Source: Pseudohongiellaceae bacterium
GTDB lineage: Bacteria > Pseudomonadota > Gammaproteobacteria > Pseudomonadales > Pseudohongiellaceae
DNA length: 36,221 bases
Reading direction: 5' to 3'
Assembly (NCBI GenBank): GCA_040902165.1
Contig: JBBDXV010000113.1
Coordinates: forward strand, 5,743 to 41,963
Part shown: positions 8,721-33,352 of the stretch, one piece after another
Numbering within the stretch: position 1 is the stretch's first letter
Layout of the letters: the number at the start of each line of letters is the position of its first letter
Translations under genes and position numbers: made by a program
Notes under the pieces: model-generated
Seen by the model: the letters and a program-made list of their open reading frames with translations, nothing else
The model's database searches: none
Told to the model about the DNA's origin: nothing

Positions 8721-10694
8721 TCACGCCGACTGGCGGCGTCGCTGTGTACGCAGGTAACCCATCGTCAACATCAGGATCGTCAGCAGCAGCGGGACCAGAC
8801 CGGTGTTGATGGCTTTAAGCCTCGACCCGAGCTGTTCGATGTCCTCGTTGAGCTGATGCTGCACGTCCCGCAGCTGACCTCGGGTGGCAAGTATTTCTTC
8901 ATTGACCCGATCAATTTCCTGCTGCACTTCCGGCGTAATTGTCGGAATCAGCTGATCGTTCTCATCACGACTCAGTTCATTGAGACGCTCTTCAGTTGCT
9001 GCCAGCGATTCCAGCAATGCCGTCTCTTCCATGCGCAATTGGTCATCGGCCTGACGCTGCAGATCCAATACCCGGGTAAAAGGTCTTGAATAGCGCCCAC
9101 GGCTGCGAATACTGACCAGGTCAGCGCTACCGCTCAAATTATCCAGAGCGTTCACCACAAAATCGCCGTTGTTCGCAAACGGCTGCGGAATACGCTGACC
9201 GAGGAATTGAGCGACCTGTACCCACATTCGATCGCTCAACAAATCCGTGTCCGCAACAATAATCAGGTTTACCTCAGCATTAGAGGTGGTCAAATGCTCA
9301 GGTACAGGTTCAGCATCTATCGCTGGTGTCTGGACTGTATCGGTAGCTGCGTCCGTATTTCCGACTGCTTCAGCAACTTCTTCTTCAACAGCAGAGTCCT
9401 CCAGCGGTGGTCCATCGGGGAAAGCAGTGCTGATCATGCCGCTGACTCTGGCGGCAATAACATATCGCTGATCGGCGGACTCGAACTCATCAAACAATAT
9501 CGAAGGGTCAGTTACATTCTGCATCAGACCGGCGTCCATCAACATCGCGTTGCTGCTGCTCTGGATCAGTGGCTCAAACCGTGTAGTGGCACCTTCCATG
9601 GGACTGATGACACCAGTGGACGAGGCGTTGACGGATTCCAGTCTGCTGGTAATCACATCGTTGAAAGTCAGTCCGGCGCTTTGAATACCCAGCATGCCAA
9701 GGTGCGGCACCGGTCGCTGACCCTGACCAAACACGACACGCAGGGCAAGCTCACTGTCAGTCAGTACCTGGCTGCTGTCATAACTCACTCCCCAGGCTGA
9801 CAGCAGTGTTGGCAAATCCGAATCCACACCTGCCGGAATGGTGACACCGAACTCTGATGCCTGAATCAGGCTGTCGGCATTGGGATCAAGGAAAACCATC
9901 GCCTTGCCATGACGGAGCACGTGCTGATCCACTGCATAGAGCATTTTTTCCGAAAGCTCGACCGGGTGCACGATCATCAATATGTCGATTTCCTGATCGA
10001 TTTCACCTGTAGTCATATCGATGCGCCGGGTTTCGTACAACTGCCGCACCACGTCCATGATTGTCCAGGGTGGGGTCGCCTGGCCGAAAGCCGGATTGAA
10101 ACCGCCATCCATATCCAGATCGGTGAGAATGCCAACGATTTGACGATCCGGATTCTCCACCCTGGTTACCAGTTTCATGAACTCATACTCGAGAAACTCC
10201 TCCTGATCAGGGCGAATGAGACCCATGGTTTCTGATATGCGAGGGGCCATACCGGTTTCATCCTGTTCCACCACTTCTGCTACCACCAGTCCAAAATAAA
10301 CACCTTCCCCGCCCTGGGAAATCGGCACCGCCTGGATGCCGAACCGGGTTGCCAGATCTTCCTCTTCCGAGAATGGTTCGGGGTCCACTACTGAAAATCT
10401 CAGGTTGCCATTGCTGGCAATTGACATTTCGCGCATTAGCTCCTGGACCCTGACGGCATAACTTCTTATCTGGGGAACGTCGGCAGTCGCCTCATCAGAA
10501 TAAAAGAAGATCATCTCGATGGGCCGGTTCAAGTTTGACAGGATATTCCTGGTACCGTCCGACAAAGAATAAAGTCTGTCTTCCGTCAAATCGATGCGAA
10601 GGGAGGGGATCAAGCTGATAATCGCAACCGACAGCAAAAGAAATACTGCAATTGACAAAAGTCCAGCTGATGAAAAGAGAGATTTGCTGTTCAT
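8721..10694 (-). CDS. GldG-like auxiliary component of an ABC-2 transporter (large extracytoplasmic protein with an N-terminal TM, C-terminal coiled coil and C-terminal TM)
   Basis: 657 aa. The N-terminal anchor is followed by RIDLTEDRLYSLSDGT, the typical start of the GldG / ABC-type uncharacterized transport system family. The C-terminus has a coiled coil followed by a TM segment. It is the third gene after an ABC ATPase and an ABC-2 permease, matching gldA-gldF-gldG order. Confidence 0.75.
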   Translation of the reverse strand: MNSKSLFSSAGLLSIAVFLLLSVAIISLIPSLRIDLTEDRLYSLSDGTRNILSNLNRPIEMIFFYSDEATADVPQIRSYAVRVQELMREMSIASNGNLRFSVVDPEPFSEEEDLATRFGIQAVPISQGGEGVYFGLVVAEVVEQDETGMAPRISETMGLIRPDQEEFLEYEFMKLVTRVENPDRQIVGILTDLDMDGGFNPAFGQATPPWTIMDVVRQLYETRRIDMTTGEIDQEIDILMIVHPVELSEKMLYAVDQHVLRHGKAMVFLDPNADSLIQASEFGVTIPAGVDSDLPTLLSAWGVSYDSSQVLTDSELALRVVFGQGQRPVPHLGMLGIQSAGLTFNDVITSRLESVNASSTGVISPMEGATTRFEPLIQSSSNAMLMDAGLMQNVTDPSILFDEFESADQRYVIAARVSGMISTAFPDGPPLEDSAVEEEVAEAVGNTDAATDTVQTPAIDAEPVPEHLTTSNAEVNLIIVADTDLLSDRMWVQVAQFLGQRIPQPFANNGDFVVNALDNLSGSADLVSIRSRGRYSRPFTRVLDLQRQADDQLRMEETALLESLAATEERLNELSRDENDQLIPTITPEVQQEIDRVNEEILATRGQLRDVQHQLNEDIEQLGSRLKAINTGLVPLLLTILMLTMGYLRTQRRRQSA

Positions 10695-10752
10695 TGATTC
10701 TACTCGTCAAACTCGCATTGGCTGATCATTATTGGGTTGGTGAAATACTGCC

Positions 10753-11487
10753 TCAATTGCCCTTCTTCATTTCTATGACTATGCCACTGGCCAGCAGCCA
10801 TGAAAAAATGAAAACGGCGAAAAACAGAAAATCCCGGATGTCCAGTACGCCTTTGCTGATGGAATCAAAATGAGTCAGAAAACCCATGGCAGCAAATGCA
10901 TCGATAAGAAACTGCGGCATCCAGCCTGGAAATGCGTTGAGCACAATCGGCGATCCCATGACTACAAACAGAAAACAGATGCTCACTGTCAGTATGAAAG
11001 CGATAACCGGATTCCTCGTGGAGGCAGACATGCAGGAACCGATTGCCAGAAAACCGCCAGCCATGAACCAGCTGCCAAGGTAAGCGGCAAATATCACACC
11101 ATTGTCTGGTTCACCGAGATAATTGACTGTCAGCCAAATGGGAAAGGTAAGCAGAAGTGCGATCCCGGTTAGTCCCCAGGCTGCAAGAAATTTACCCAGC
11201 ACAGCTTCGGATAGCTTGACCGGCAAGGTAAGCAATAGTTCTATGGTACCGGTCTTGCGCTCATCAGCCCACAGTCCCATCGCAACGGCCGGTACCATGA
11301 ACAGATACAACCACGGGTGAAAACTGAAGAACGGCAACAGATCTGCCTGTCCACGCTGATAGAAGCCACCAAGGTCAAAGGTGAAGATCCCGTTCATGAT
11401 GAGAAAGATCACGATAAAAATATAGGCCAGGGGCGTCGCGAAATAGCTGGCCAGTTCGCGTTTGAAAATAATCTGCAGATTTGCCAT
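10753..11487 (-). CDS. ABC-2 type transporter permease (GldF-like)
   Basis: 244 aa with about 6 hydrophobic helices. The N-terminus KRELASYFATPLAYIFIVIFL is typical of ABC-2 / GldF-family permeases. It lies 9 nt downstream of the ATPase gene. Confidence 0.8.
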   Translation of the reverse strand: MANLQIIFKRELASYFATPLAYIFIVIFLIMNGIFTFDLGGFYQRGQADLLPFFSFHPWLYLFMVPAVAMGLWADERKTGTIELLLTLPVKLSEAVLGKFLAAWGLTGIALLLTFPIWLTVNYLGEPDNGVIFAAYLGSWFMAGGFLAIGSCMSASTRNPVIAFILTVSICFLFVVMGSPIVLNAFPGWMPQFLIDAFAAMGFLTHFDSISKGVLDIRDFLFFAVFIFSWLLASGIVIEMKKGN

Positions 11488-11496
11488 GGCGTCTTC

Positions 11497-12423
11497 CTAT
11501 TGCACAGACTGGGTTACAGTTCTGAACACATCTTCCAGCTCTCCACGGTTTACATGGAACTCCGAAACCGGCCAGTGCCGGGTCTGAGCCAGTTCCGAAA
11601 CCGCCGCGAAAATCGGCTTCCCGTCGCGCGAGAGAATGGTAAAACTCAACTCATCCTGCTCATCCTGTTCCACTGCAGCAATCTCAGGTCGATTGGCAAG
11701 ATCAGCGACAAGATCATATCTGCTGGTCAGGCGAATGCTGACAGCCTGGTGATATCTGGATCTGGATTCCAGCTCGGCAGGTGTACCGTCGACCACTATA
11801 CGCCCATTGGCAATGATAATGGCGCGCGTACAGACTGACGTTACCTCTTCGAGGATATGGGTTGAGATGATGACAATTTTTTCGCGTGCGAGATTCCTGA
11901 TCAGGGCTCGCACATGGTGTTTCTGGTTAGGATCCAGACCGTCGGTCGGCTCGTCCAGAATAAGCACTTTGGGATCGTGCATGATGGCCTGGGCCAGGCC
12001 CACACGGCGCTTGAACCCCTTGGACAGGGTTTCAATAGTCTGATGGCGCACCTTGCCAAGTTCAACCTGTTCGATCACCCGATTGACCCTCTCGGCGATC
12101 TGTTCATTGCGGTAACCACGCACCTGGGCGATAAAATTGAGGAACTCCAGGGTCGTCATGTCGCCGTAGCTCGGCGCTCCCTCAGGCAGGTAACCGATCA
12201 GGGATTTGGCCTCGATGGCACTCTGGGTAATATCAAAACCGTCGATCTTGACCGTACCGGAGGTAGGCGCCAGAAAACCGGTAATGACCTTCATGGTCGT
12301 GGATTTGCCGGCACCATTGGGACCCAGAAAGCCAAGTACTTCACCTTCTCTCACGGTGAAGGTCAGGTCATCCACGGCAGTAAACTGATTGAACTTCTTG
12401 GTTAGATGATTAATCTCGATCAT
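11497..12423 (-). CDS. ABC transporter ATP-binding protein (GldA-like, ABC-2 subfamily)
   Basis: Walker A is GPNGAGKST, the Q-loop is present, the signature is LSKGFKRRVGLA, Walker B is VLILDEPTDGLD and the H-loop is ISTHILEE. A C-terminal extension of about 80 aa is typical of this subfamily. Confidence 0.9.
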   Translation of the reverse strand: MIEINHLTKKFNQFTAVDDLTFTVREGEVLGFLGPNGAGKSTTMKVITGFLAPTSGTVKIDGFDITQSAIEAKSLIGYLPEGAPSYGDMTTLEFLNFIAQVRGYRNEQIAERVNRVIEQVELGKVRHQTIETLSKGFKRRVGLAQAIMHDPKVLILDEPTDGLDPNQKHHVRALIRNLAREKIVIISTHILEEVTSVCTRAIIIANGRIVVDGTPAELESRSRYHQAVSIRLTSRYDLVADLANRPEIAAVEQDEQDELSFTILSRDGKPIFAAVSELAQTRHWPVSEFHVNRGELEDVFRTVTQSVQ

Positions 12424-12486: not shown

Positions 12487-12534
12487 GAGTCAAGGCAAGA
12501 GTCAAGACAAGAGTCAAGGTGAGAGTCAAGGCGA
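12487..12534. repeat. Four tandem 12-bp direct repeats (gagtcaaggcaa / gagtcaagacaa / gagtcaaggtga / gagtcaaggcga)
   Basis: Read directly. The conserved core is GAGTCAAG(G/A) and the 3-nt tail varies. The repeats are intergenic, between the gldA-like operon start and the lptM start. Confidence 0.9.
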
Positions 12535-12556
12535 GACACTCTCACCAAGGCAGGGT

Positions 12557-12562
12557 TATAAT
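12557..12562 (+). promoter_or_regulatory. Candidate -10 hexamer (TATAAT) for lptM-lysA
   Basis: A perfect tataat lies 37 nt upstream of the lptM ATG. The 12-bp repeat array (12487-12534) ends 5-6 bp upstream of the expected -35 position. No good -35 consensus was seen. Confidence 0.3.
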
Positions 12563-12598: not shown

Positions 12599-12745
12599 AT
12601 GAACAAACCAGTCAGAATCCTGTCTTTCTTCCTTTGTATATTGGTTTTGACCAGTTGTGGCCAGAAAGGTCCGCTGCGAAGACCGGAGCAGGTATCCCTC
12701 GAACCAATCCAGCCTGAACTGCTTGTGAATCTTCGGCTTTCCTGA
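12599..12745 (+). CDS. lptM: Small lipoprotein of the LptM (YifL) / LppL family, 48 aa; absent from the supplied ORF track
   Basis: My own translation is MNKPVRILSFFLCILVLTSCGQKGPLRRPEQVSLEPIQPELLVNLRLS*. It has a signal peptide and lipobox (LTSC) followed by the family motif CGxKGPL. The position immediately upstream of lysA-dapF matches lppL-lysA in Pseudomonas and yifL-dapF in E. coli. Confidence 0.7.
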   Translation: MNKPVRILSFFLCILVLTSCGQKGPLRRPEQVSLEPIQPELLVNLRLS

Positions 12746-12797: not shown

Positions 12798-14045
12798 ATG
12801 ACGCTATTCGATTACCGGCAAGATGAACTGTTTGCTGAACAGGTCCCGCTGAGCAAAATTGCTGCAGAGTTCGGCACACCGACCTATGTGTACTCAAGAG
12901 CGGGGATTGAGAATGAACTGCGCTCCTATCAGCGGGTACTTGCAGGACATTCGCATCTGATTTGCTACGCCGTCAAGTCCAACTCAAACCTGGCGGTTCT
13001 TGATGTGCTGGCGCGTGCCGGCGCCGGTTTTGACATTGTCTCCGGCGGCGAACTGGAACGGGTTCTCAGGGCCGGCGGTAGCGCAGCAAAGACGATCTTT
13101 TCCGGCGTAGGCAAGAGCACAGCAGAAATTGAAAAAGCCCTGCTGGCCGGAATAGCCTGTTTCAATATCGAATCGGAAGCAGAACTTGAGCGAATCTGTA
13201 TGGTGGCAGAACGCTTGCAGAAAGTCGCGCCGGTCTCGCTGCGCGTTAATCCGGACGTGGATGCGGGAACCCACCCGTATATCTCTACCGGCTTGAAAGA
13301 AAATAAATTCGGCATCGACAGCGGCCAGGCCTTTGAGCTCTATCTGCGCGCCGCCGAAATGCCGCAGATCAAACTGATTGGCATCGACTGCCATATTGGT
13401 TCGCAGCTGACCGAACTGGGTCCGTACATGGATGCCATTGATAAAATGCTGACCCTGGTGGACCGGTTGCAAACAGCCGGCATTGTTCTCGAACACTTCG
13501 ATATCGGCGGTGGTCTCGGCGTTTGTTATCGTGATGAACAACCCCCCGCGCCGCAGCAACTGATCAGCGCGGTTCTGAAAAAACTCGGCCGCCGCAAATT
13601 GAAATTGATGCTGGAACCCGGCAGATCCATCACCGCCAACGCCGGAATCCTGCTGACCCGCGTCGAATATCTGAAGCATACTCCGCACAAGAACTTTGCC
13701 ATTGTTGATGCCGGCATGAACGATCTGATCAGACCGGCTCTGTATGGTGCATGGCAAAACATTATTCCGGTGCGGCGCGGCAGCGCCGAGTCGCAGCTTT
13801 ACGATGTTGTGGGTCCGGTTTGCGAATCGGCCGATTTTCTGGGCAAGGAACGATCACTTGCAATACTGCCGGATGACCTGCTGGCAGTCATGTCCGCCGG
13901 ATCCTATGGGTTTGTAATGAGCTCCAATTACAACAGCCGAAACCGGGCGGCAGAAGTGTTGGTGGACGGACCTCGAATGCATCTGGTTCGTCAACGCGAA
14001 TCCCTGGAACAGCAGCTGCAACTGGAAAGTTGTCTGCCGGAATAA
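12798..14045 (+). CDS. lysA: Diaminopimelate decarboxylase
   Basis: 415 aa. It has FGTPTYVYS, the PLP lysine context YAVKSN, GGGLG, and the C-terminal EPGRSI...CESADFL...GSYGFVMSSNYNSR blocks of fold-type III decarboxylases of the LysA type. Confidence 0.95.
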   Translation: MTLFDYRQDELFAEQVPLSKIAAEFGTPTYVYSRAGIENELRSYQRVLAGHSHLICYAVKSNSNLAVLDVLARAGAGFDIVSGGELERVLRAGGSAAKTIFSGVGKSTAEIEKALLAGIACFNIESEAELERICMVAERLQKVAPVSLRVNPDVDAGTHPYISTGLKENKFGIDSGQAFELYLRAAEMPQIKLIGIDCHIGSQLTELGPYMDAIDKMLTLVDRLQTAGIVLEHFDIGGGLGVCYRDEQPPAPQQLISAVLKKLGRRKLKLMLEPGRSITANAGILLTRVEYLKHTPHKNFAIVDAGMNDLIRPALYGAWQNIIPVRRGSAESQLYDVVGPVCESADFLGKERSLAILPDDLLAVMSAGSYGFVMSSNYNSRNRAAEVLVDGPRMHLVRQRESLEQQLQLESCLPE

Positions 14046-14093: not shown

Positions 14094-14936
14094 ATGCAAT
14101 TACCTTTTACGAAAATGCACGGCCTGGGCAATGACTTCATGGTGATCGACCTGGTCAATCACAAGGCAAGCCTGGGTCCGGATCTGATCCGCCAGTTGGC
14201 AGACCGGCACTTTGGCATCGGTTTCGATCAGCTGTTGTTGATAATGCCACCCACAAGCAGCGACGTTGATTTCGACTACCGAATCTATAATGCAGACGGC
14301 AACGAGGTAGAACACTGTGGCAACGGTGCGAGATGTTTTGCACTCTATGTGCGCGACAAGGGACTCAGCAGGAAAAATCCGCTTACAGTAGGCACGATCA
14401 ATAACAAGCTGGAATTGAAAATTGAGCCGGACAACAGCGTGATCGTAGATATGGGTGTGCCCAGATTCGCTCTCGAACAGATACCGTTTCGCAGCAATGA
14501 GCAGGCAACTGTACACAAGAGAATGATTTCTCTCGCGTCAGGATCACTGCAGGTCGAGTTTGTCGCACTGTCGATGGGCAATCCGCATGCCGTCCTTCTG
14601 GTTGAGGACGTCGACAATGCCGATGTCGTTGAGATTGGTACTGCGCTTGGCAGTCATCCGGATTTTCCCCAGGGCGTGAATGTAGGGTTTATGCAAATCA
14701 TCGACGCGGGACATGTCAAATTGCGTGTCTATGAACGTGGCGCCGGTGAAACGCTTGCCTGTGGTACCGGCGCCTGTGCTGCGATGGTGGCTGGTTGCGT
14801 GCTCGGACGATTAAATGATACCGTGCAGATCAGCCTGCGTGGCGGCGAATTGACAGTGAAATGGCCGGGCAAAAACTCCCCGGTCCTGATGCGGGGACCG
14901 GCCACAACCGTATTTGAGGGGATGATTCAAATATGA
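14094..14936 (+). CDS. dapF: Diaminopimelate epimerase
   Basis: 280 aa. It has the FTKMHGLGNDFMVID N-terminus and both catalytic cysteine contexts (VEHCGNGARC and ETLACGTGACA). Confidence 0.95.
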   Translation: MQLPFTKMHGLGNDFMVIDLVNHKASLGPDLIRQLADRHFGIGFDQLLLIMPPTSSDVDFDYRIYNADGNEVEHCGNGARCFALYVRDKGLSRKNPLTVGTINNKLELKIEPDNSVIVDMGVPRFALEQIPFRSNEQATVHKRMISLASGSLQVEFVALSMGNPHAVLLVEDVDNADVVEIGTALGSHPDFPQGVNVGFMQIIDAGHVKLRVYERGAGETLACGTGACAAMVAGCVLGRLNDTVQISLRGGELTVKWPGKNSPVLMRGPATTVFEGMIQI

Positions 14937-15682
14937 GCAATGCGAACAATGTGACCAATGTGATAGACGAGAATAAAACAGCAGCACAAGCAGATGCGAA
15001 TCCGGCCGCTGAAATCAGCGCTGAGCAGGTCGCCGCTTATCTGCATACCCATCCGGATTTCTTTATTGCTCATCAAGAACTGTTGGCGGAACTGCATCTT
15101 CCCCATGCAAGCGGTAGTGCAATTTCCCTGGTCGAAAGGCAGATAAGCATTCTTCGTAACCGCGGCATGGATGCAAGGGTAAAACTCAATAACCTTTTGG
15201 ACAATGCACGCAATAATGATCTGTTGTTTGAGACTACCCGGGATCTGGTGCTTGCCCTGCTACGCGCCAGGGATGCGAATGAAATCGTCCAGATTGCCCA
15301 GGATCGACTCAACCAACTGGAAAATATTGATGCCTGTGAGTTCTTGCTGGCACAACGAAGCGGTTTGCAGCTGGCTGACAATATTCGCTCTGAACCAGTC
15401 GAGAAACTCAAACAGGATTATCAGGATGTATTCCGGCTGAAGCGAACCCATTGCGGAGGTCTCAAACAGGGCCAGATCAACAGTCTGTTCTCTACCGCAG
15501 ATGCAAAAATCAGTTCTACCGCGTTATGTCCGGTAACGCATCAAGGGGAAGTCCTTGGCTTGATCGCGCTGGGCAATCGGGAAGAGGATTATTTCAATCT
15601 CAACCTCGACACCCTGTTTCTTGATTTCATCGGTGATGTTGTCGGTGCAGTGCTTGGTCGCGAACTGGACCGGCACAAATGA
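14933..15682 (+). CDS. DUF484-family protein (YigA-like)
   Basis: 249 aa. The block VAAYLHTHPDFFIAHQELLAELHLPHASGSAISLVERQISILR is the characteristic DUF484 N-terminal block, and the C-terminal half is GAF-like. The ATGA overlap with dapF matches the position of yigA in dapF-yigA-xerC. Confidence 0.85.
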   Translation: MSNANNVTNVIDENKTAAQADANPAAEISAEQVAAYLHTHPDFFIAHQELLAELHLPHASGSAISLVERQISILRNRGMDARVKLNNLLDNARNNDLLFETTRDLVLALLRARDANEIVQIAQDRLNQLENIDACEFLLAQRSGLQLADNIRSEPVEKLKQDYQDVFRLKRTHCGGLKQGQINSLFSTADAKISSTALCPVTHQGEVLGLIALGNREEDYFNLNLDTLFLDFIGDVVGAVLGRELDRHK

Positions 15683-15721
15683 TTGCCTGACCGATCCCGT
15701 CGTGCGGTCGCCCCTCCCAAA

Positions 15722-16954
15722 ATGAAAAACTCCGACAAAAATGCACAGCCACAAACCGCCCCGCTGGTTTCAATTATTTGCCGGTCTATCAATCGCCCTC
15801 AGTTGGCAGAGGCATTGCAATCCGTCAGGGTACAGACCTACAAGCCGATTGAAATAATCCTGGTTGACAGTCTCGCGCGCGGAATTTCCGCAGACCTTTA
15901 TCGGGACTATTATCGTGACTATGGCGACCAGATCAGGGTAGTCACGCCCGAAAAACCACTGGGGCGCGCTGCGGCAGCCAATACCGGGTTGGACCATGCG
16001 CGTGGCGACTACTTGATGTTTCTGGATGACGATGACTGGATCGCGCCGGATCATATTGCAAATCTTCTGGATCTGCTTAAAGCAAACAGGAGCATAAAAG
16101 CTGCCTATAGTAGTGTAAGAAAAGTAACTCTCGCCGGCAAACCAACCGAAGAGATTTTTGACCAGCCCTATGATGTCGTTTTGCTGCGGCGGGATAACTA
16201 CATTCCAATTCATGCAGTGCTTTTTTCCAGAATCCTCTTGACCACAGGCTGTCGATTTGACGAATCGCTGGACATCTACGAGGACTGGGATTTCTGGTTG
16301 CAGGCATCAAGACAAACAGAAATGCGGCATCTGGACAGGATTACTGCTTTTTATCGTCAGGGAGGCGGCTCGGATACCGCGGTAATAACCAATGAATCAC
16401 GTTACGCCGTCGGGAATGTCATCGCTGGGGCCAGGAGTGCAGTACTGGAAAAGTGGAAGAGTATCTGGACTGGTGCCGAACTCAATGAGCTTATCGGCAG
16501 CATGGACAGCTCAGCTGAACTGTCAGCACTTGCCGAGGAAATAAAAGGACTGCACCAGACAATGGGTAATCTGCATGAACGCCTTGTAAAAGCGGACGCC
16601 GCAACCAGGGTCTTTGCGAACACTGCCAACACCCTCAGGCGTGAGCTGTCTTCAGCCAACGATGCAACCAGGATCGTTGAGAACACTGCCAACACCCTCA
16701 GGCGTGAGCTGTCGTCAGCCAACGATGCTCTCAAACAAAGATTAACCGAGTTGAACGCTCTGCATAATTCCCTTGAGGAATTGCGTAATTCCCTTGAGGA
16801 ATTGCGTAATTCCCTTGAGCAAAGTCATTCGAACGCGAGGCAATTAAACCGCCAGCTTGATGTTATCTATCACTCATTATCCTGGCGGCTCATGGGGCCT
16901 TTTCGAAGATTAAAGCGTCTACTTGGCAGCAATTCCGGTCGACATGAAAACTGA
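15722..16954 (+). CDS. Family-2 glycosyltransferase with a C-terminal coiled-coil extension of about 120 aa
   Basis: The GT-A core is VSIICRSINRPQLAEALQSVRVQTYKPIEIILVD...AAAANTGLDHARGDYLMFLDDDDW (DxD motif). The C-terminus has heptad-rich repeats (ANTANTLRRELSSAND x2, NSLEELR x3) and then the motif SLSWRLMGPFRRL. The first ATG is at 15722. The track's start at 15683 is a TTG that directly abuts the DUF484 stop. Confidence 0.8.
   Translation: MKNSDKNAQPQTAPLVSIICRSINRPQLAEALQSVRVQTYKPIEIILVDSLARGISADLYRDYYRDYGDQIRVVTPEKPLGRAAAANTGLDHARGDYLMFLDDDDWIAPDHIANLLDLLKANRSIKAAYSSVRKVTLAGKPTEEIFDQPYDVVLLRRDNYIPIHAVLFSRILLTTGCRFDESLDIYEDWDFWLQASRQTEMRHLDRITAFYRQGGGSDTAVITNESRYAVGNVIAGARSAVLEKWKSIWTGAELNELIGSMDSSAELSALAEEIKGLHQTMGNLHERLVKADAATRVFANTANTLRRELSSANDATRIVENTANTLRRELSSANDALKQRLTELNALHNSLEELRNSLEELRNSLEQSHSNARQLNRQLDVIYHSLSWRLMGPFRRLKRLLGSNSGRHEN
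16601..16728 (+). repeat. In-frame 63-bp tandem repeat (2 copies plus 2 nt) inside the GT2 coiled-coil region
   Basis: Units 16601-16663 and 16664-16726 differ at 4 positions by my alignment. Each encodes the 21-aa unit ATR(V/I)(F/V)(A/E)NTANTLRRELSSAND. Confidence 0.95.
16765..16820 (+). repeat. In-frame 21-bp tandem repeat (2 identical copies plus a 13-nt partial copy), encoding NSLEELR heptads
   Basis: taattcccttgaggaattgcg occurs at 16765-16785 and again at 16786-16806. The next unit begins identically at 16807 and diverges at 16820. Confidence 0.95.
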
Positions 16955-19900
16955 TCATCAACATTTTTCTGCAGCGCAGGAAGTCATAGACTGCAGTGTA
17001 ATAATCCCGACCCGGGATCAGGTAAAGTTACTTGAATCCTGCATAAACTCTATCCTTGCGAGCCAATACTCTGGTTCCCTGGAAATCATTGTTGTTGATA
17101 ACAACAGCAGCGAAGATGAAACCCTGTTGTATCTTGAGTCTTTTACTGAAGATCCTCGAATAAAAGTAGTAAGGTGGCCCCATCCATTTAATTTCTCCAG
17201 GCTCAACAATGAGGCAGCTCAGTTCGCCAAGGGTGAAGTACTTTGCTTTCTCAATAATGATATCGAAGTGATCAACAATAACTGGCTGGAAGAACTGGTT
17301 CCAATAGCGCGACGATACGATGTGGGAGCAGTGGGCACGATACTGCTTTATCCCGACGGAAGCATCCAACACGCTGGCATTGCCCTTGACAGTGAATGCG
17401 TGGCTAAACACGTCGGCGTTGGTGAGAGCAAGGATTTCCTGAAACACTATTCTGCGGCATCGCTTTGCAAGGTAGTTGCAGTGACCGCTGCATGCATGTT
17501 TACCAGGCGCGAACTCTTTCTCGTTTTTGGTGGTTTTAACGAATCCGATCTCCCGGTCTCATTTAACGACGTAGATTACTGCCTGCGCCTGGGTGCAGCG
17601 GGCTATCCTGTGTTCCTGAATTTTGACATAGCCCTGATTCATTACGAATCAGTGACGCGCAAGAGCGACGATCTGCCGCAAAACAGACCGCGTGCTCTGA
17701 AAGAAAAAAAATTTATGGATACCCGCTGGGCCACTGAATTAAAGGGCAAGCGATACCTGGCAGGTGTGCCGGATTCATTCAGATTTCCCGCACTGGATTC
17801 GAGTGCGCCCGAGTCTAGTTCTGTGCTGGAGAATTTTCTGCACGAACTGTCCGCAACCGAGGTACACAAATCTTCTCTCAGTTTCAATTCAGGCACTATT
17901 CTGCCTTCCAATATCGAATGGGAAAGAAAGTATCACCAACTCGAAATTCAATATCGGGTTCTGGAGGCACAGGCTCGCGAAAGCCAACAATTACTTAGCC
18001 AAATTGTGGATTCCAAATACTGGCGATACACCGGGTTTCTTCGCCTGCTGCTTCGAACTCTGACAAATTTCAAGCAGCGATGTGGCCGTTTTATCATGCG
18101 ATTCTCCCAGGGCAGACGACTTCTGATGCGGATTGGCAGGGTGCCCCGCGTCGAACCAGAAGCCCAGGTTGTCAAAATCGATGTCAAAACCGTTTATGAC
18201 GAACAGGCACGAACAGCATTGGACGCGTTCCTTGCCAGTGACGAAGTGCTTGAGTTTCGGGTCAGCGCAACTATAGACGTTTCTATAATTCTGGTTTTTT
18301 TTAACAAGGCGGAACTCAGCTATCTTTGTTTGAAATCCATACTGGCGCATGCGGGATCAAACTATGAAGTAGTAATCATCGACAACGCATCGACTGATGA
18401 ATCCGTGCTGCTTTGTAGTCGGATAAAGGGAGCAAGGATCTCGCGTAACAGTGAAAATGCGGGTTTCGTTCATGCGGTCAACCAGGCGGTACAATTGGCC
18501 ACAGGTGAAACATTGTTGTTGCTGAATAATGATGCGGTGCTGGAACCGGATTCCGTGGAGGCCGCCTTAAAAACCTTGAACAGTCGGGATGATGTCGGTG
18601 CGGTCGGCGGAATGATCAGGCTGCTGGACGGTAAATTGCAGGAGGCCGGCAGCATAATCTGGGACGATGGCAGCTGTGTCGGATATGGCCGTGGTAACGA
18701 CCCGGAACAACCTGAGTATATGTTTCAAAGGGAGGTCGATTATTGTTCCGGCGCCTTTCTGATGTTTAACCGTGAGCTTTTTGCAAAAATGGGCGGGTTC
18801 GATGAGGCTTTTGCTCCTGCATACTACGAGGAATCCGATTTTTGTATCCGCCTGAAGAAACAGGGATATAAGGTGATCTATGAGCCCCGAGCCAGGATTA
18901 CTCACTATGAATTTGCGAGCTCGGGTGGATTTTCTAACGCCGCGAAACTGCAGGCAGCACATAGGCTGGTGTTGAGAGAGAAGCATTCAGATTATCTTGC
19001 GCAAAAGTATTCTAACCTTGCTGAGAACTATAATCGCGCGAGAACTGCAAACCGAAATCCTAATGTCCTTTTCATTGATGATCGTGTGCCACACGCAAGC
19101 CTGGGGGCTGGATATCCACGCTGCCTGGATTTGCTGCGCGAACTGGCAAGTTGCAAGCTTAATGTAACGTTTTATCCACTGTTGTTTCCTGAGGAACAAT
19201 GGGATAGCACGTACTCGGTTATTCCACAGAATATTGAAGTTATACTTCACTGCGGGAAACAGGGATTGCTTGATTTTCTACAGCGAAGAGCCGGTTTTTT
19301 TGACTACATAATCGTCAGTCGGGCGCCGAATATGGATTTTCTGGGTCAGTTGATTGCTGCCAGAACTGATCTGATAAATCGAAGTCTCATTGTGTATGAC
19401 GCGGAAGCGGTTACTGCAACGCGGGATATACTGCGTTCGGAGATTCAAGGAACTCCACTGTCAGAAGACAAAAAGACCTCGCTTCTGAAACAGGAGCTCG
19501 ATCTTGCACGATATGCGCAAAAGATAATTACGGTATCACCGCTTGAGTCAATGATCTTCAGGAATGCCGGATATAAAAACGTCATTGAAATCGGACATCG
19601 CGTGGACGTGACACCGAGCAAGGCAGCCTTTGGTGATAGAGTTGACTTGTTATTTGTTGGAGCTCTGCGGGATGACACCTCACCGAACGTGGATTCTCTT
19701 CTTTGGTTTACACAAAAAGTCCTGCCCCTGATAAACAACAAACTGAAAGAGCCTGTCAGACTGATAGTTGCAGGGGACAATATCGCACCTCAATTGAAGA
19801 TCATTGATCGAACCTTTGTGAAGTTCATTGGACGAATAGATGATATCGCGCAGCTATACAATCATTGCCGTGTGTTTGTTGCCCCAACTCGATTTGCAGC

Positions 19901-20189
19901 AGGAATTCCGCGCAAGATTCATGATGCTGCAGCCTACGGTTTGCCCTCCGTATCCACTCCCCTGTTGGCAAGACAGCTTGGCTGGAAAAACCAGAAACAA
20001 CTGATCGTGGCCGATACCGCTGAGGAATTTGCCGCAGCATGTTGCCGACTGTATGAGGATGAAGCTCTGTGGAACCAGATCAGGGCTGCGGGTTTGGAGT
20101 CAGTAAGTGCCGATTGCTCACCGGCTACTTTTTCGCGCGGCGTTTCTTCTGTATTCGAAAAATCTACGGAAATCGTTACAAAAGCCTGA
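16944..20189 (+). CDS. Large multidomain glycosyltransferase: GT2, coiled-coil linker, GT2, GT-B (GT1/GT4-like)
   Basis: GT2-a (about 16992-17660) reads CSVIIPTRDQ...EIIVVDNNSSEDET...CFLNNDIEV...AACMFTRRELF...NDVDYCLRL. The linker (about 17913-18035) has the coiled coil KYHQLEIQYRVLEAQARESQQLL followed by SKYWRYTGFLRLL. GT2-b (about 18276-18920) reads VSIILVFFNKAE...VVIIDNASTDES...LLLNNDAVLE...DYCSGAFLMFNRELF...EESDFCIRL. The GT-B domain (about 19062-20150) reads LLFVGAL...RLIVAG...VKFIGRIDD...RVFVAPTRFAAGIPRKIHDAAAYGLPSVST. I chose the ATG at 16944; the track's start at 16923 is a TTG. Confidence 0.85.
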   Translation: MKTDHQHFSAAQEVIDCSVIIPTRDQVKLLESCINSILASQYSGSLEIIVVDNNSSEDETLLYLESFTEDPRIKVVRWPHPFNFSRLNNEAAQFAKGEVLCFLNNDIEVINNNWLEELVPIARRYDVGAVGTILLYPDGSIQHAGIALDSECVAKHVGVGESKDFLKHYSAASLCKVVAVTAACMFTRRELFLVFGGFNESDLPVSFNDVDYCLRLGAAGYPVFLNFDIALIHYESVTRKSDDLPQNRPRALKEKKFMDTRWATELKGKRYLAGVPDSFRFPALDSSAPESSSVLENFLHELSATEVHKSSLSFNSGTILPSNIEWERKYHQLEIQYRVLEAQARESQQLLSQIVDSKYWRYTGFLRLLLRTLTNFKQRCGRFIMRFSQGRRLLMRIGRVPRVEPEAQVVKIDVKTVYDEQARTALDAFLASDEVLEFRVSATIDVSIILVFFNKAELSYLCLKSILAHAGSNYEVVIIDNASTDESVLLCSRIKGARISRNSENAGFVHAVNQAVQLATGETLLLLNNDAVLEPDSVEAALKTLNSRDDVGAVGGMIRLLDGKLQEAGSIIWDDGSCVGYGRGNDPEQPEYMFQREVDYCSGAFLMFNRELFAKMGGFDEAFAPAYYEESDFCIRLKKQGYKVIYEPRARITHYEFASSGGFSNAAKLQAAHRLVLREKHSDYLAQKYSNLAENYNRARTANRNPNVLFIDDRVPHASLGAGYPRCLDLLRELASCKLNVTFYPLLFPEEQWDSTYSVIPQNIEVILHCGKQGLLDFLQRRAGFFDYIIVSRAPNMDFLGQLIAARTDLINRSLIVYDAEAVTATRDILRSEIQGTPLSEDKKTSLLKQELDLARYAQKIITVSPLESMIFRNAGYKNVIEIGHRVDVTPSKAAFGDRVDLLFVGALRDDTSPNVDSLLWFTQKVLPLINNKLKEPVRLIVAGDNIAPQLKIIDRTFVKFIGRIDDIAQLYNHCRVFVAPTRFAAGIPRKIHDAAAYGLPSVSTPLLARQLGWKNQKQLIVADTAEEFAAACCRLYEDEALWNQIRAAGLESVSADCSPATFSRGVSSVFEKSTEIVTKA

Positions 20190-21117
20190 CGAATCTGAAA
20201 ATAATTTTCTGCAGAACCGGCGGCAACTTTCTCATGGTGCCCGTGGTTCCGCAAAGCAACTTTTGCCTGAAACCCATTTTCTCGCTGTATCGCAATTTAA
20301 ATTGGATCGATTGTAGTCCCACATCCCGTAATAGTGCCTCAGAATCCCTATTGAAAACCCGCTTGATCAATTTTTTTGAAAATAACCTGGCTGGCTTGAT
20401 CGGTACTGCTCCAAGTAAATTGCCGCTGTGTTGCCGATAGTTAACCGTTGCCTGATTCACGAATAAAATTTCCCCGGAAATGCTTGCGACCAGCGCCAGC
20501 CACCAGTCATGCATGACGGCTGATTCGGGAACAGGAATCGCTTTATTTGCCAGAGACTCATTTATCAGGACTGTACAACCGGTAACGCTGTTCTCAACGA
20601 GTCTACGACCGAAATTCCTGCTTTGTGGTCTGAGATGCTGATATGCCGCCAGCGATGAGGATATGATTTTGAGCTGTTCATCGACGACACGCAGATCAGT
20701 GTGAACCAACACAGGTTGACTGGGGTCAGAGTGCTTCGATAACAGCGCTTCTATCGTTATTTCAAGCTTCTTCGGATCCCAGACATCATCCTGGTCACAG
20801 AACGCAATATACGCAAATCCAATGATTCCAAGCTCAGTCTTGTTTGCCAGCACATATTCGACAAGCCTTCCGAAACTCTGGCTCGGCCCAAGGTTTTTAC
20901 CAAAGCCATTGACCATTCTTATGCGGTCAGGGTTATCAACAAGATAGTGATCAATTATCTGTAAGGTATTATCTGTCGAACCGTCGTCCCGTATGACAAT
21001 AACGTAGTTCTGAAAAGTCTGCTTCAAAACCGAATCAAGCTGCCGTTCAAGAAATTTTCCGCCATTGTATGTGGATAGCAGGATGGCAACTTTGAAATTG
21101 TCCGGAATCACTTTCAA
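20176..21117 (-). CDS. Family-2 glycosyltransferase
   Basis: 313 aa. VAILLSTYNGGKFLERQLDSVLKQTFQNYVIVIRDDGSTDNT...FCDQDDVW is the classic GT-A N-terminal half with a DxD motif. There is a 4-nt start/stop overlap with the upstream GT2 gene. Confidence 0.85.
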   Translation of the reverse strand: MKVIPDNFKVAILLSTYNGGKFLERQLDSVLKQTFQNYVIVIRDDGSTDNTLQIIDHYLVDNPDRIRMVNGFGKNLGPSQSFGRLVEYVLANKTELGIIGFAYIAFCDQDDVWDPKKLEITIEALLSKHSDPSQPVLVHTDLRVVDEQLKIISSSLAAYQHLRPQSRNFGRRLVENSVTGCTVLINESLANKAIPVPESAVMHDWWLALVASISGEILFVNQATVNYRQHSGNLLGAVPIKPARLFSKKLIKRVFNRDSEALLRDVGLQSIQFKLRYSEKMGFRQKLLCGTTGTMRKLPPVLQKIIFRFVRLL

Positions 21118-22022
21118 CCCAGGGTTTTTGCATCGCGTATACCGGCAGAAATATTGCGCCAGTATTGCTTGCGTTGACCTGAAGAGACAAGCAACCAGCT
21201 TGCCTTGACAAAAAACCTGATGCAGTCCCGAACTTTCCAGCCCAGCGGTGAATAAGGAACACTGTAAAGGTGGACACGGTTCCGGCTTGAATAGTAGATG
21301 CGTGAAGGGTTGTGCAGCGCCATCACCCCTGATCTTACCAGCGGATTGGTGCTACGCTCACCGATGGCGTGATAAAGCACAGCCTGATCTGTTCCTGCCA
21401 GCTCAAAGCCCTTCGCCTTGGCACGAAAACACCATTCCATATCCACATTGTCGATGAAGTAACTGGATTTCATCATGCCTGTTTTGGGTAAAACATGAAG
21501 GGGTATCAAGGTACCTGAGGTAATCAGAAAATCGGCTTCAAAATGCAATCGCGTGTTCATGAAGTGGCGATCGGTGCGCCACATCAGCCGGTTAAACAGT
21601 TTGAATCTGGTTTGCTTGCGAGTCTGGGGATTAATGATCCGCGGGCCCAGCGCTGCCACAGGTTTGGCAGAAAGCTTTGCGATATCATCATAGGCAGTGA
21701 GCATACGATTCACATAAAGATCACAGAGACTGCTGTCCTGGTCGAACAGAAACGCAAACCGGTAGGATTGTTCGACAGCATATTCAAGCCCGATGTTCAG
21801 CGCCTGGGCCAAACCGACATTTTCCGGCAGGCGAACCAGATTGACGCAGCGTCGATAGACTTTTATTGACTCGGTGAATTGCCCGATTTTTTGCGAGCCG
21901 TTGTCAATGACTACAAAGTCCGTTTCCTTGTTCAGCTGACCCAGTAACTTCAGCAGGCTGGTAATGTCCGGGTTGAAGGTGACAATTACCGCACAACTGG
22001 CTTTTTCGTTTGTGTTATCCAT
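21114..22022 (-). CDS. Family-2 glycosyltransferase, rhamnosyltransferase (WbbL/RfbF)-like subgroup
   Basis: 302 aa. AVIVTFNPD...FVVIDNGS...LPENVGLAQALNIGLEY...FLFDQDS follows the pattern of the WbbL-type GT2 subgroup. The sugar specificity cannot be read from the sequence. Confidence 0.8.
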   Translation of the reverse strand: MDNTNEKASCAVIVTFNPDITSLLKLLGQLNKETDFVVIDNGSQKIGQFTESIKVYRRCVNLVRLPENVGLAQALNIGLEYAVEQSYRFAFLFDQDSSLCDLYVNRMLTAYDDIAKLSAKPVAALGPRIINPQTRKQTRFKLFNRLMWRTDRHFMNTRLHFEADFLITSGTLIPLHVLPKTGMMKSSYFIDNVDMEWCFRAKAKGFELAGTDQAVLYHAIGERSTNPLVRSGVMALHNPSRIYYSSRNRVHLYSVPYSPLGWKVRDCIRFFVKASWLLVSSGQRKQYWRNISAGIRDAKTLG

Positions 22023-22043
22023 GGACTGACCCGGTCTGCCGTT

Positions 22044-22601
22044 TCATTCGCTATTGGTTTCAATGGATGAACTATTTTCTGCAGGCACTTCAGCCGACAG
22101 TGTCATGCGTTCCGGCGCGGTTACCGATTGCACCAGAAAATAGACTATCGAACATACACCAAGGAACAAACCGGTAACTACGCCAGCATCCACGATTCCA
22201 CGCCAGGGTTGGGGCAACAGTCTCACTATTGTGACCAGGACGACTATCATCAAGGTCAACGAGTAGGACAGCACCAGGCGCCGTCGCGTTGCATATAGAA
22301 ATCCCATGCAGAAGAACGGCGCCAGAAGCACATGCAGTAGGCGAGGATGGTTCCTGAGGTAAGTGGCACGAATTACAACTCGCGGCGCAAAACCCTTGTG
22401 AAACCCCTGGTAACCTTCAGCATAAGCCATATAGACAATGCTGAATAACAAGGCCAGCCAGTGCCAGCCATTAAGATAGAGTTCCGACAGATCCATGGCC
22501 ATTGGCAACAGTCGGTAGACAGCAAACAACAGCAAGGCGATAACTCCGCCGATGCCCCAGGTAAAGCCGATTAAATGCACAATCTCACCCATAGGAAACA
22601 A
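22044..22601 (-). CDS. Hypothetical polytopic inner-membrane protein (about 5 TM segments); no family recognised
   Basis: 185-aa ORF with five clear hydrophobic stretches separated by basic or aromatic loops (for example YAEGYQGFHKGFAPR, ATRRR, LPQPWRG). It lies 21 nt upstream of the GT2 pair on the same strand and diverges from gshB. Coding status is supported only by ORF length, hydrophobic periodicity and operon context. Confidence 0.6.
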   Translation of the reverse strand: MFPMGEIVHLIGFTWGIGGVIALLLFAVYRLLPMAMDLSELYLNGWHWLALLFSIVYMAYAEGYQGFHKGFAPRVVIRATYLRNHPRLLHVLLAPFFCMGFLYATRRRLVLSYSLTLMIVVLVTIVRLLPQPWRGIVDAGVVTGLFLGVCSIVYFLVQSVTAPERMTLSAEVPAENSSSIETNSE

Positions 22602-22765
22602 TGCGCCGTATTATAGCGACTTGAAGGAAATTACCAAAAAATCAATAACTTTCCCGCCTTTATACCTTGCCAATGACAAATTAGGCTATTATTCCGCCAC
22701 TCTGTGCAGATTATTGTCCCGGTATCCGGGAAAGACATGACAAGGGCAACTGACAAACGAAAAGT

Positions 22766-23725
22766 ATGAGCATCAAATTGGGGATCGTGATGGATCCGAT
22801 AGAATCCATCAATTACAAAAAGGACACCAGCCTGGCAATGCTGTGGGCGGCACGGGACCGGGGCTGGTCACTCTATTATATGTTGCAGACTGATCTGTAC
22901 ATGGAAGGCGGCATCAGCAAAGCCATTACACGCGAACTGAAAGTACATAATGATGCCGCCAGATGGTTTTCTTTCGGCGCGACCGTAGACATGCCGCTGG
23001 CGGAACTGGACGTGATCCTGATGCGCAAGGATCCGCCATTCGATACCCCTTACATTTACTCAACGTATCTGCTGGATCAGGCCAGGGTGGCAGGCACTTT
23101 GGTGGTAAACAATCCGCAGAGTCTCAGAGACTGTAATGAGAAACTTTTTGCCGCCCAGTTTCCGCAATGCTGCCCGCCTTTCATGGTTGCCTGTTCAGCT
23201 GCCAAGCTAAAGGAGTTTCACCGACAGCACGAGGATGTGATATTCAAACCGCTGGACGGCATGGGTGGTACCTCCATTTTCCGACTCAGAAAGGATGATC
23301 CGAACGTCAGTGTCATCATTGAAGTTATCACCAGGGGTGGCAGCAACCAGATTATGGCGCAGAAATACATCCCGGAGATCGTCAAGGGTGACAAGCGCAT
23401 TCTGTTGATTGACGGCAAGCCGGTCCCTTATGCGCTTGCCCGTGTCCCGGCAGTCGGGGAAACCCGCGGTAATCTGGCAGCCGGCGGCAGCGGCGTGGCC
23501 CAGGAACTCAGCGACCGCGATCGCTGGATTTGTGAACAGGTCGGCCCGATCGTCAGAGAAAAAGGTTTAGTCTTTGTCGGTCTGGACGTTATTGGTGATT
23601 ATCTGACAGAAATCAATGTCACCAGCCCAACCTGTGTAAGGGAAATCAATGCCGCCTATAATCTGGATATCGCCGGTGAACTGATGGATTGTATCGAGAT
23701 GAAACTGTCCTCAGTCGACAGGTAA
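22766..23725 (+). CDS. gshB: Glutathione synthetase
   Basis: 319 aa. It has the KLGIVMDPIESINYKKDTSLAML N-terminus, then RKDPPFD and the ATP-grasp blocks KPLDGMGG, GDKRILLIDG and NLAAGG...EINVTSPT. Confidence 0.95.
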   Translation: MSIKLGIVMDPIESINYKKDTSLAMLWAARDRGWSLYYMLQTDLYMEGGISKAITRELKVHNDAARWFSFGATVDMPLAELDVILMRKDPPFDTPYIYSTYLLDQARVAGTLVVNNPQSLRDCNEKLFAAQFPQCCPPFMVACSAAKLKEFHRQHEDVIFKPLDGMGGTSIFRLRKDDPNVSVIIEVITRGGSNQIMAQKYIPEIVKGDKRILLIDGKPVPYALARVPAVGETRGNLAAGGSGVAQELSDRDRWICEQVGPIVREKGLVFVGLDVIGDYLTEINVTSPTCVREINAAYNLDIAGELMDCIEMKLSSVDR

Positions 23726-33322: not shown

Positions 33323-33352
33323 TTCCTGCCTTTCACAGATCAGCCTCACACT

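Follow-up and report, generated by a model that had tools for sequence, protein, structure and literature searches.

A conserved glycosyltransferase module between DUF484 and gshB in Pseudohongiellaceae, possibly a glycan-assembly system with a coiled-coil ruler

Gene content of the DUF484-gshB interval

We analysed a stretch of 36,221 nucleotides (nt) from a Pseudohongiellaceae bacterium (GCA_040902165.1, contig JBBDXV010000113.1, positions 5,743-41,963, forward strand), named here the window, in which a module of five genes lies between the DUF484 gene and gshB (15722-22592). Gene order and domain searches identify the window as a gammaproteobacterial core-genome segment. The five genes form two convergent operons, and Pfam detects six glycosyltransferase (GT) domains in their products, five of family GT2 and one of the GT4/GT-B type. 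The module is an old, core-genome fixture of the Pseudohongiellaceae, and the missing xerC after DUF484 is a trait of that family. The module genes and the two genes that border them are the following.

14933-15682, plus strand: DUF484 (yigA-like) gene, PF04340, E = 6e-40; median identity to relatives 57%
15722..16954, plus strand: GT2-cc, a GT2 domain with a coiled-coil tail; PF00535, E = 1e-23
16944..20189, plus strand: giant GT, 1081 residues, composed of a GT2a domain, a short coiled coil, a GT2b-type domain and a GT4/GT-B domain (Pfam and NCBIfam)
20176..21117, minus strand: stand-alone GT2b, PF00535, E = 3e-19, FCDQDD motif; last gene of the minus-strand operon
21114..22022, minus strand: rhamnosyltransferase-like GT2 (rhaT-like), FDQDS motif; TIGR01556, E = 2e-56
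22044..22592, minus strand: orphan membrane protein, 182 residues from ATG 22592; first gene of the minus-strand operon
22766..23725, plus strand: gshB, NF003573, E = 4e-137, and Pfam; the core genes resume here

An earlier annotation of this stretch, made from its letters alone (the sequence-only reading), had placed the end of DUF484 at 15682, with TTG 15683 and a first ATG at 15722 opening the next frame, as translation and the PF04340 match confirm. It had taken that frame for a GT2 enzyme and not for a tyrosine recombinase; indeed, PF00535 is matched at the E value given above and XerC is not. Coordinates, Pfam and NCBIfam also agree with its five open reading frames (ORFs) in two convergent operons followed by gshB, and its domain annotation and count of at least six GT domains hold when the five ORFs are searched with hidden Markov models, which find six. 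As it had further stated, genes for an exporter, a primer, nucleoside diphosphate (NDP)-sugar synthesis, an integrase or a transposase are lacking: domain searches of the whole window detected no Wzx/Wzy, Wzm/Wzt, phosphoglycosyl transferase or NDP-sugar gene and, with Pfam, no integrase or transposase. In addition, tRNA and Rfam scans of the window returned no tRNA or Rfam element, and a repeat search found no flanking or border repeats around the module.

The genes of each operon are tightly packed. The start of GT2-cc is likely ATG 15722, as judged from its agreement with the N-termini of the orthologs and with the database gene call P0241 (410 residues), while TTG 15683 is unlikely. Counted from this ATG, 39 nt separate GT2-cc from DUF484. 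The sequence-only reading had the two frames adjoin directly, leaving no room for a promoter; the read-through that it proposed is plausible, but the gap is 39 nt and not 0. The giant gene overlaps the stop of GT2-cc by 11 nt from ATG 16944, a start that matches the ortholog N-termini and the database call P0001 (1081 residues). The alternative start is TTG 16923, and an exact-sequence look-up of the ORF from this TTG gave no match, the database entry starting at the ATG. At the convergent junction, the stop codons of the giant gene and of stand-alone GT2b overlap by 14 nt (20176-20189). On the minus strand, the rhaT-like gene overlaps the start of GT2b by 4 nt, and the longest ORF of the membrane protein begins at TTG 22601 (182-185 residues, depending on the start).

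Conservation and inheritance of the module

The same five genes were found between dapF-DUF484 and gshB-tonB-algH-ruvX in P. acticola, with a giant protein 50% identical to that of the window, and in three Logan contigs (59%). Scanning one genome per species with aligned giant-protein sequences gave 80 loci. Of these genome loci, 51 reach from DUF484 to gshB, and 48 of them have the full order GT2-cc, giant, GT2b, rhaT-like, membrane protein; the wider string from GldG to pilT is also usually kept in the family loci. Since these genome loci were ascertained through a GT gene, the test was repeated from the DUF484 side. In metagenomes, aligned DUF484 sequences picked out 80 contigs whose DUF484 is 53-61% identical to that of the window; a genome scan with the single DUF484 protein had found no relative, whereas the alignment-based scans did. 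Among the 58 DUF484-selected contigs with at least 1.2 kilobases (kb) downstream, the next gene is GT2-cc in 56, GT2b/rhaT-like in 2 and xerC in none. The gaps between DUF484 and GT2-cc in relatives are mostly 28-160 nt. With E. coli XerC as a query, taken from the annotated lptM-dapF-yigA-xerC string, no XerC-like sequence was detected in the window or in 164 loci, which together measure 2.5 Mb; in none of these loci does xerC lie within 10 kb of DUF484.

The module also diverges together with its flanks. The distances of the GT2-GT4 pair, GT2b, the rhaT-like enzyme and the membrane protein correlate with the mean of those of lysA, dapF and gshB (r = 0.72-0.89, 63 loci), a concordance at the level of pairwise distance matrices. 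This correlation was reached in 0 of 500 permutations, and it matches in strength that of the housekeeping genes among themselves (r = 0.85-0.87). The module has almost certainly been inherited vertically throughout the family.

A few loci show other arrangements or labels. DUF484 is followed directly by GT2b/rhaT-like, without the plus-strand half, in two metagenome contigs (L131:1-2348 and L133:1-2808), and one genome locus (L065:8500-15800) is without the minus-strand half. Complete Pseudohongiellaceae synteny from lysA to algH is seen in L053 (PAHQ01000064.1), labelled 'Verrucomicrobiales bacterium', and in L007 (NVUL01000065.1), labelled 'SAR86 cluster bacterium'; both taxon labels are probably binning or naming errors.

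In base composition, the module differs mildly from its surroundings. The whole-gene content of guanine plus cytosine (G+C) is 50.2% for GT2-cc, 48.0% for the giant gene, 45.4% for stand-alone GT2b, 49.5% for the rhaT-like gene and 50.5% for the membrane-protein gene, with a mean of 52.4% for the other 27 genes of the window (standard deviation 2.3, range 45.5-57.2; lysA 54.6%, gshB 52.4%). The module region as a whole has 48.7% versus 52.5% for the rest of the window, that is 3.8 points less, and a G+C profile in 1-kb steps dips to 0.46-0.50 from a background of 0.50-0.56. Only stand-alone GT2b (G+C, z = -3.0) and the giant gene (G+C at third codon positions, z = -2.6) are compositional outliers, and three of the five module genes fit the codon usage of the background worse (z = -2.3 to -2.6). 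Among the relatives, the G+C of the module follows that of the host over 39-61%: module and flanks differ by no more than ~3.5 points, the module usually being lower by 0-3 points. Since most orthologous modules show such a deficit, of up to ~3 points, it is a property of the genes and not a mark of foreign origin; the mild deviation is of a kind common in poorly expressed GT genes and carries no foreign signature. The marked contrast reported by the sequence-only reading came from four 60-nt lines, the values of which (41.7, 43.3, 60.0 and 63.3%) were correctly counted but are unrepresentative of whole genes. Indeed, with whole genes at 45.4-50.5% in the module and 52.4% (standard deviation 2.3) outside it, that contrast proves to be a sampling artefact.

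These results bear directly on the origin of the module. The sequence-only reading had proposed an island inserted at, or displacing, the xerC position. A recent event of this kind, by which this genome or its near ancestors gained a foreign GT module, could account for the 3.8-point G+C deficit relative to the rest of the window, for the z values of GT2b (-3.0, G+C) and the giant gene (-2.6, third positions), for the codon usage of three of the five genes and for the presence of xerC at this position in E. coli. However, the module occupies the same slot throughout the family (48 of 51 genome loci, 56 of 58 DUF484-selected contigs), its composition tracks that of each host with a deficit of up to ~3 points recurring in the orthologous modules, it co-diverges with the flanking housekeeping genes, and no integrase, transposase, tRNA or border repeat accompanies it. 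That reading had itself held that the same genes at this junction in relatives, with host-like composition, would speak against an island; this is what the relatives carry, so the island is refuted on its own terms, and we regard a recent acquisition as exceedingly improbable. The replacement of xerC by GT genes relative to E. coli stands, although as a family-wide trait and not as a particularity of this genome. A much older event, an acquisition or rearrangement in the ancestor of the Pseudohongiellaceae that split DUF484 from xerC and was followed by vertical descent, is compatible with the explanation that we favour below, and we consider it possible, if on balance doubtful. It is suggested by GT2-GT4 homologs in alphaproteobacterial contigs (45-47%) and in Sporomusa (38%), a similarity about that found within the family, and by the dapF-yigA-xerC string kept in E. 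coli. On the other hand, no sequence trace of an insertion is left, the junctions compared are those of family loci, and some 'alphaproteobacterial' labels of metagenome-assembled genomes (MAGs) may be binning errors, as for L053.

Module proteins, their variants and the neighbouring genes

GT2-cc is composed of an N-terminal GT-A (GT2) domain with an FLDDDDW motif, a coiled-coil stalk of ~130 residues and a C-terminal SxxW[RK]..P.RR motif. In Pfam searches, coiled-coil families are matched at residues 266-400, and the C-terminal 150 residues match coiled-coil families only. The AlphaFold2 model (predicted local distance difference test (pLDDT) score 86) comprises the GT-A domain (1-260), two helices (264-310 and 318-383) and short helices over the motif (386-402), the helical stalk measuring ~113 residues. 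A Foldseek search with this model retrieved GT-A glycan GTs. The SxxWR..P.RR-type motif is kept in nearly all GT2-cc orthologs, and the spacer between the GT domain and this motif counts 129 residues in the window, with a family range of 66-171 and a median of 94 in split forms. Within the coiled coil, Tandem Repeats Finder detected two duplications, both in frame.

16601-16728, plus strand: tandem duplication in the coiled coil, 63 nt x 2.0 (21 residues each)
16761-16819, plus strand: tandem duplication in the coiled coil, 21 nt x 2.8 (7 residues each)

The copies show 93% and 97% matches, and a separate repeat search recovered both duplications as families D1 and D3. Both are whole multiples of a heptad, by which the stalk is lengthened with its heptad phase kept. 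These tandem duplications are recent.

The giant protein carries the motifs FLNNDI in its first and LLNNDA in its second GT2 domain, and residues D106 and D530 are invariant across 27 homologs. Its GT-B domain belongs to PF13692 (Glyco_trans_1_4, E = 2e-22); at family position 994, where an acidic residue is kept in the C-terminal nucleotide-sugar site, 25 of 27 sequences have Glu and the window has Asp. The linker at residues ~330-375 holds a short coiled coil and an SxxWR-like motif; here, as in the GT2-cc tail, the coiled coil leads into an SxxWR..(P/F).R motif. Apart from one weak hydrophobic stretch, the giant protein has no transmembrane (TM) segment. About 110 full-length homologs share 45-59% identity with it, and those that are named come nearly all from Pseudohongiella, Pseudohongiellaceae or unclassified gammaproteobacterial MAGs.

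All five GT2 domains of the module score above the PF00535 gathering score and have acidic DxD-type motifs (DDDD, NND twice, DQDD and DQDS). None of the module GTs has TM helices, and the PgaC/NodC models align with nothing but the soluble GT2 core, at scores far under their cut-offs. A synthase-dependent exopolysaccharide type (BcsA, PgaC, Alg8) was ruled out, as no GT with TM segments is present. The top match in the PDB, 9jma, combines a PglI-type molecule name with the entry title 'AvpGT' and a nucleoside, and it was not used for assigning an undecaprenyl-linked acceptor.

The three minus-strand proteins are unequally conserved. Stand-alone GT2b has orthologs in 63 loci with a median identity of 43%, whereas the rhaT-like protein, with a median of 65%, is the best-conserved GT of the module. 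The latter aligns over residues 14-297 with positions 1-280 of the 281 of TIGR01556 and scores 191.0 bits, below the curated cut-off of 200.55; because of this near miss, we limit its label to 'rhamnosyltransferase-like'. Sequence and profile searches of the PDB gave no match for it. The orphan membrane protein, encoded 21 nt from the rhaT-like gene and conserved at a median identity of 60%, displays the invariant motifs MAYAEGYxGFxxxFAPR, LAPxFCMG and QPWRGIxDAGV in the family alignment, and its AlphaFold2 model shows four long helices (pLDDT 82). No Pfam or NCBIfam family matches it, and a lenient Pfam search with this protein and the extra genes of P. acticola returned CheA-like kinase and receiver domains only. 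The model has no fold match in the PDB (best E = 1.8). The protein has 1555 homologs, and among the 120 listed all are unnamed or 'hypothetical', except for 4 with the JGI label 'GT2 family glycosyltransferase'.

Comparison of the loci reveals several arrangements of the plus-strand domains. Here A denotes the GT2 of GT2-cc, while the giant protein contributes C and E, its first and second GT2, and F, its GT4. The split form A / C-E-F of the window is found in 45 loci, while in 51 others a single fused protein of ~1050 residues has the order A-coiled coil-E-F, without C. Fully fused proteins of 1440-1530 residues occur in 13 loci; one of them, in L105 (1442 residues), was confirmed by Pfam. 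A fused A-C-E-F homolog is also present in Sporomusa rhizae (38% identity over the full length), inside a large cluster of multiple GT, methyltransferase and acetyltransferase genes. The existence of fused forms suggests that GT2-cc and the giant protein work together as one machine, in which domain C is optional. In two alphaproteobacterial contigs, L076 and L082, a GT2-GT4 homolog adjoins genes for Wzm/RfbD-like (274-289 bits) and Wzt/RfbE-like (260 bits) proteins, and in L082 and L070 it adjoins a gene for an FkbM-family methyltransferase of 690 residues.

The surroundings of the module vary in some lineages. In the P. acticola lineage, the region upstream of GT2-cc encodes a histidine kinase and a sigma-54 response regulator, and that upstream of the membrane protein a CheA-like kinase with receivers (L001:5266-8424 and L001:15771-18680; L006:15655-19731; L039:14737-18122), which hints at regulated expression in this lineage. 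In some relatives, the junction of the convergent operons holds 1.5-9 kb of unrelated cargo (L061:12001-18858, L071:11977-20974 and L062:5587-11699), including a Mutator-family transposase, a TumE toxin, an amidohydrolase, a permease and a LuxR regulator, and this suggests that the giant/GT2b junction is a local insertion hot spot. The inserts of L061 and L071 were checked for the missing exporter and sugar genes and contain none.

The genes to the left of the module are hemD, hemC, argH, a DegP-like protease gene, an ABC-F gene, a two-component pair, a GldG/GldF/GldA-like ATP-binding cassette (ABC)-2 transporter, an lptM-like gene, lysA, dapF and DUF484; to the right follow gshB, a TonB-like gene, algH, ruvX, pilT, yggS, proC, yggT, metX, metW and rdgB. 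The features that matter for the transcription of the module, besides those listed above, are these.

12599..12745, plus strand: LptM-like small lipoprotein gene, a 48-residue ORF with a lipobox and a CGQKGPL motif
12798-14045, plus strand: lysA, from translation and a P. acticola ortholog with matching Pfam family; median identity to relatives 64%
14094-14936, plus strand: dapF, from translation and a P. acticola ortholog with matching Pfam family; median identity to relatives 59%
22610..22637, minus strand: sigma-70-like promoter match, TTGGTA-16-TATAAT, 10/12 matches

The LptM-like ORF (MNKPVRILSFFLCILVLTSCGQKGPL...) is unannotated and precedes lysA, as lptM precedes dapF in E. coli; its P. 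acticola ortholog is weakly flagged as PF13627 (LptM_cons). With a promoter-like site (12533-12562) just upstream of it, this gene is the probable opening of the plus-strand transcription unit. The 39-nt gap, the lack of a terminator-like site after DUF484 and the site at 12533-12562 together make it plausible that GT2-cc and the giant gene are co-transcribed with lysA-dapF-DUF484. The sigma-70-like match at 22610..22637 falls within the 164 nt that separate the membrane-protein gene from the divergently oriented gshB; as the number of promoter-like sites in the region is no higher than in shuffled sequences, it constitutes weak evidence.

Two further observations concern the rest of the window. 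The GldA/GldF/GldG-like ABC-2 transporter (8721-12423, minus strand) is divergent from lptM-lysA and syntenic with the GT module in most Pseudohongiellaceae loci. We considered and rejected it as the exporter of the module, since it is GldA/F/G-like and not Wzm/Wzt and since it is missing at this place in the P. acticola lineage, which keeps the module. An ORF of 423 residues (32327-33598, minus strand) has no Pfam match, overlaps HemN-like and M20 peptidase genes on the opposite strand and is probably spurious.

Possible function and comparison with known systems

The module, which is uncharacterised, probably represents an already familiar type of glycan-assembly system. A vertically inherited module for glycan assembly of the ABC-transporter-dependent type offers, when these features are taken jointly, the best explanation of the locus, and we hold it with slightly better than even confidence; for the ruler mechanism proper to that type, which is suggested by the architecture of the proteins, we put the chances at about even. 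Such systems make O-antigen-type polysaccharides. Their marker is a long coiled-coil protein that carries the terminator at the distal end, the coiled coil serving as a ruler for chain length, and their polymerase modules are either fused (WbbB, O7 ORF6) or separate (WbdA), as described for Klebsiella O4, O7 and O12 and E. coli O9 (PMC11231755). GT2-cc likewise carries its catalytic module N-terminally, at the distal end of an extended coiled coil, as seen in the Pfam matches, the AlphaFold2 model and the heptad-phase repeats.

In the proposed mechanism, the six soluble or peripheral cytoplasmic GT domains would assemble a polymer, borne by a lipid carrier, on the inner side of the membrane. 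The C-terminal GT2-GT4 pair of the giant protein (E-F) would act as the polymerase, and GT2-cc as a capping or terminating GT at the far end of the coiled-coil stalk, which its basic and aromatic C-terminal motif may hold at the membrane or at the polymerase. The N-terminal GT2 of the giant protein (C) would be an extra, optional transferase for adaptor or branch sugars, and stand-alone GT2b and the rhaT-like enzyme could make the adaptor or add side branches. Genes outside this locus would provide the initiating transferase, a Wzm/Wzt exporter, the ligase and the sugar nucleotides. GT2-cc and the giant gene would be transcribed with lptM-lysA-dapF-DUF484, and the minus-strand trio from its own promoter beside gshB.

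Several points weigh against this assignment. No wzm/wzt, initiating transferase, ligase or sugar-nucleotide gene was found in the window or, in the family loci examined, within 10 kb of the module, and the only nearby ABC transporter is GldA/F/G-like. The terminating role of GT2-cc is assigned by position only, sequence and profile searches of the PDB yielded generic GT-A and GT-B matches only, and promoter and terminator scans were overall no better than chance. A literature search on Pseudohongiella and glycosyltransferases returned nothing relevant. Finally, the family-wide fixity of the module differs from the normally hypervariable O-antigen loci, and a glycan of the common-antigen or core type fits it better than a serotype antigen.

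Three other functions were weighed on the same evidence. The GTs might instead decorate flagellin, pilin or another surface protein in the cytoplasm, where neither carrier nor exporter is needed; this would suit the lack of an exporter or primer gene nearby, the solubility of all module GTs, the presence of pilT 3 kb away and the cluster in Sporomusa (GT11, Glyco_tranf_2_5, methyltransferase), which also resembles flagellin-glycosylation islands. Yet no flagellin, pilin or Maf-type gene adjoins the module in any locus, pilT is simply part of the usual gene order of the flanks, Wzm/Wzt genes accompany distant homologs, and a coiled-coil stalk with a two-GT polymerase is a hallmark of polymer chain-length control, which together make protein glycosylation distinctly unlikely. 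Extension of a glycolipid or of the lipopolysaccharide core is unlikely: a lipid such as a glycoglycerolipid or lipid A-core would here receive a defined oligosaccharide from the GTs, the orphan membrane protein would act as partner or anchor, and neither polymerisation nor a dedicated exporter would be involved. Strict family-wide conservation at a core-genome site is indeed typical of core or common structures and not of O-antigens, and the membrane protein is tightly coupled to the module (21-nt gap to the rhaT-like gene, 60% median identity). For a fixed oligosaccharide, however, neither the variation in coiled-coil length nor the WbbB-like fusion is expected, the optional GT2a domain implies structural variation, and no lipid-synthesis genes lie nearby. 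We find it very unlikely that a conserved glycan or glycolipid of the 'common antigen' type is made by these genes alone, in a pathway specific to the family in which the orphan membrane protein, with its invariant charged motifs and no relative in Pfam or among PDB folds, would supply an undescribed priming, anchoring or translocation function in place of a phosphoglycosyl transferase or Wzm/Wzt.

The removal of the horizontally acquired island as a false lead leaves a picture in which the Pseudohongiellaceae, an abundant, mostly uncultured marine family that includes OM182-type lineages, carry one glycan module at a fixed site in hosts of 39-61% G+C. Surface-glycan loci are not usually so fixed, and this site points to a conserved glycan of the cell envelope. 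Split, fused and extended forms of the coiled-coil GT make up a natural series with which the molecular-ruler model could be tested comparatively outside enterobacteria, and functional work has a defined target in the co-conserved orphan membrane protein.

The gene order around the module recalls the dapF-yigA(DUF484)-xerC string of E. coli and pseudomonads. The order of lptM, dapF and DUF484 and their overlap pattern are the same, whereas E. coli has xerC after yigA and the Pseudohongiellaceae have the GT genes there. In the Pseudohongiellaceae, lysA sits between lptM and dapF, as it does in Pseudomonas.

Among characterised assembly systems, WbdD/WbdA of E. coli O9a and K. pneumoniae O3 has, like the window, a separate coiled-coil protein with a distal catalytic domain and a multi-module GT polymerase. 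WbdA, for its part, consists of GT4 mannosyltransferase modules only. The distal domain of WbdD is a kinase/methyltransferase and not a GT. Its C-terminal region binds the membrane and the polymerase, and the length of its stalk sets the chain length (PMC11231755); stalk length also varies among the GT2-cc relatives, while a role of the SxxWR..P.RR motif of GT2-cc as an amphipathic helix is only putative. In K. pneumoniae O7, ORF6 combines a methyltransferase-kinase, a coiled coil and two GT2 modules, and some of its orthologs end after the coiled coil (PMC11231755). These fused and shortened variants within one family parallel the split and fused forms described here, although the terminator chemistry is different and the O7 cluster carries rml and wzm/wzt.

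The closest likeness in domain order is offered by WbbB of K. pneumoniae O12 and Raoultella terrigena, in which a terminating GT, a coiled-coil ruler and two polymerising GT modules are joined in one protein. We take the WbbB terminator to belong to family GT99. It is a Kdo transferase (PMC11231755), whereas the corresponding domain here is a GT2, and the catalytic domains are unrelated; WbbB was not among the PDB search results for the module GTs. Moreover, wzm/wzt are not adjacent in the present case, and the window encodes its putative terminator and polymerase as two proteins. The order of the parts is nevertheless that of the fused A-coiled coil-E-F form found in 51 loci of the family, of which the window carries a split version with one extra GT2.

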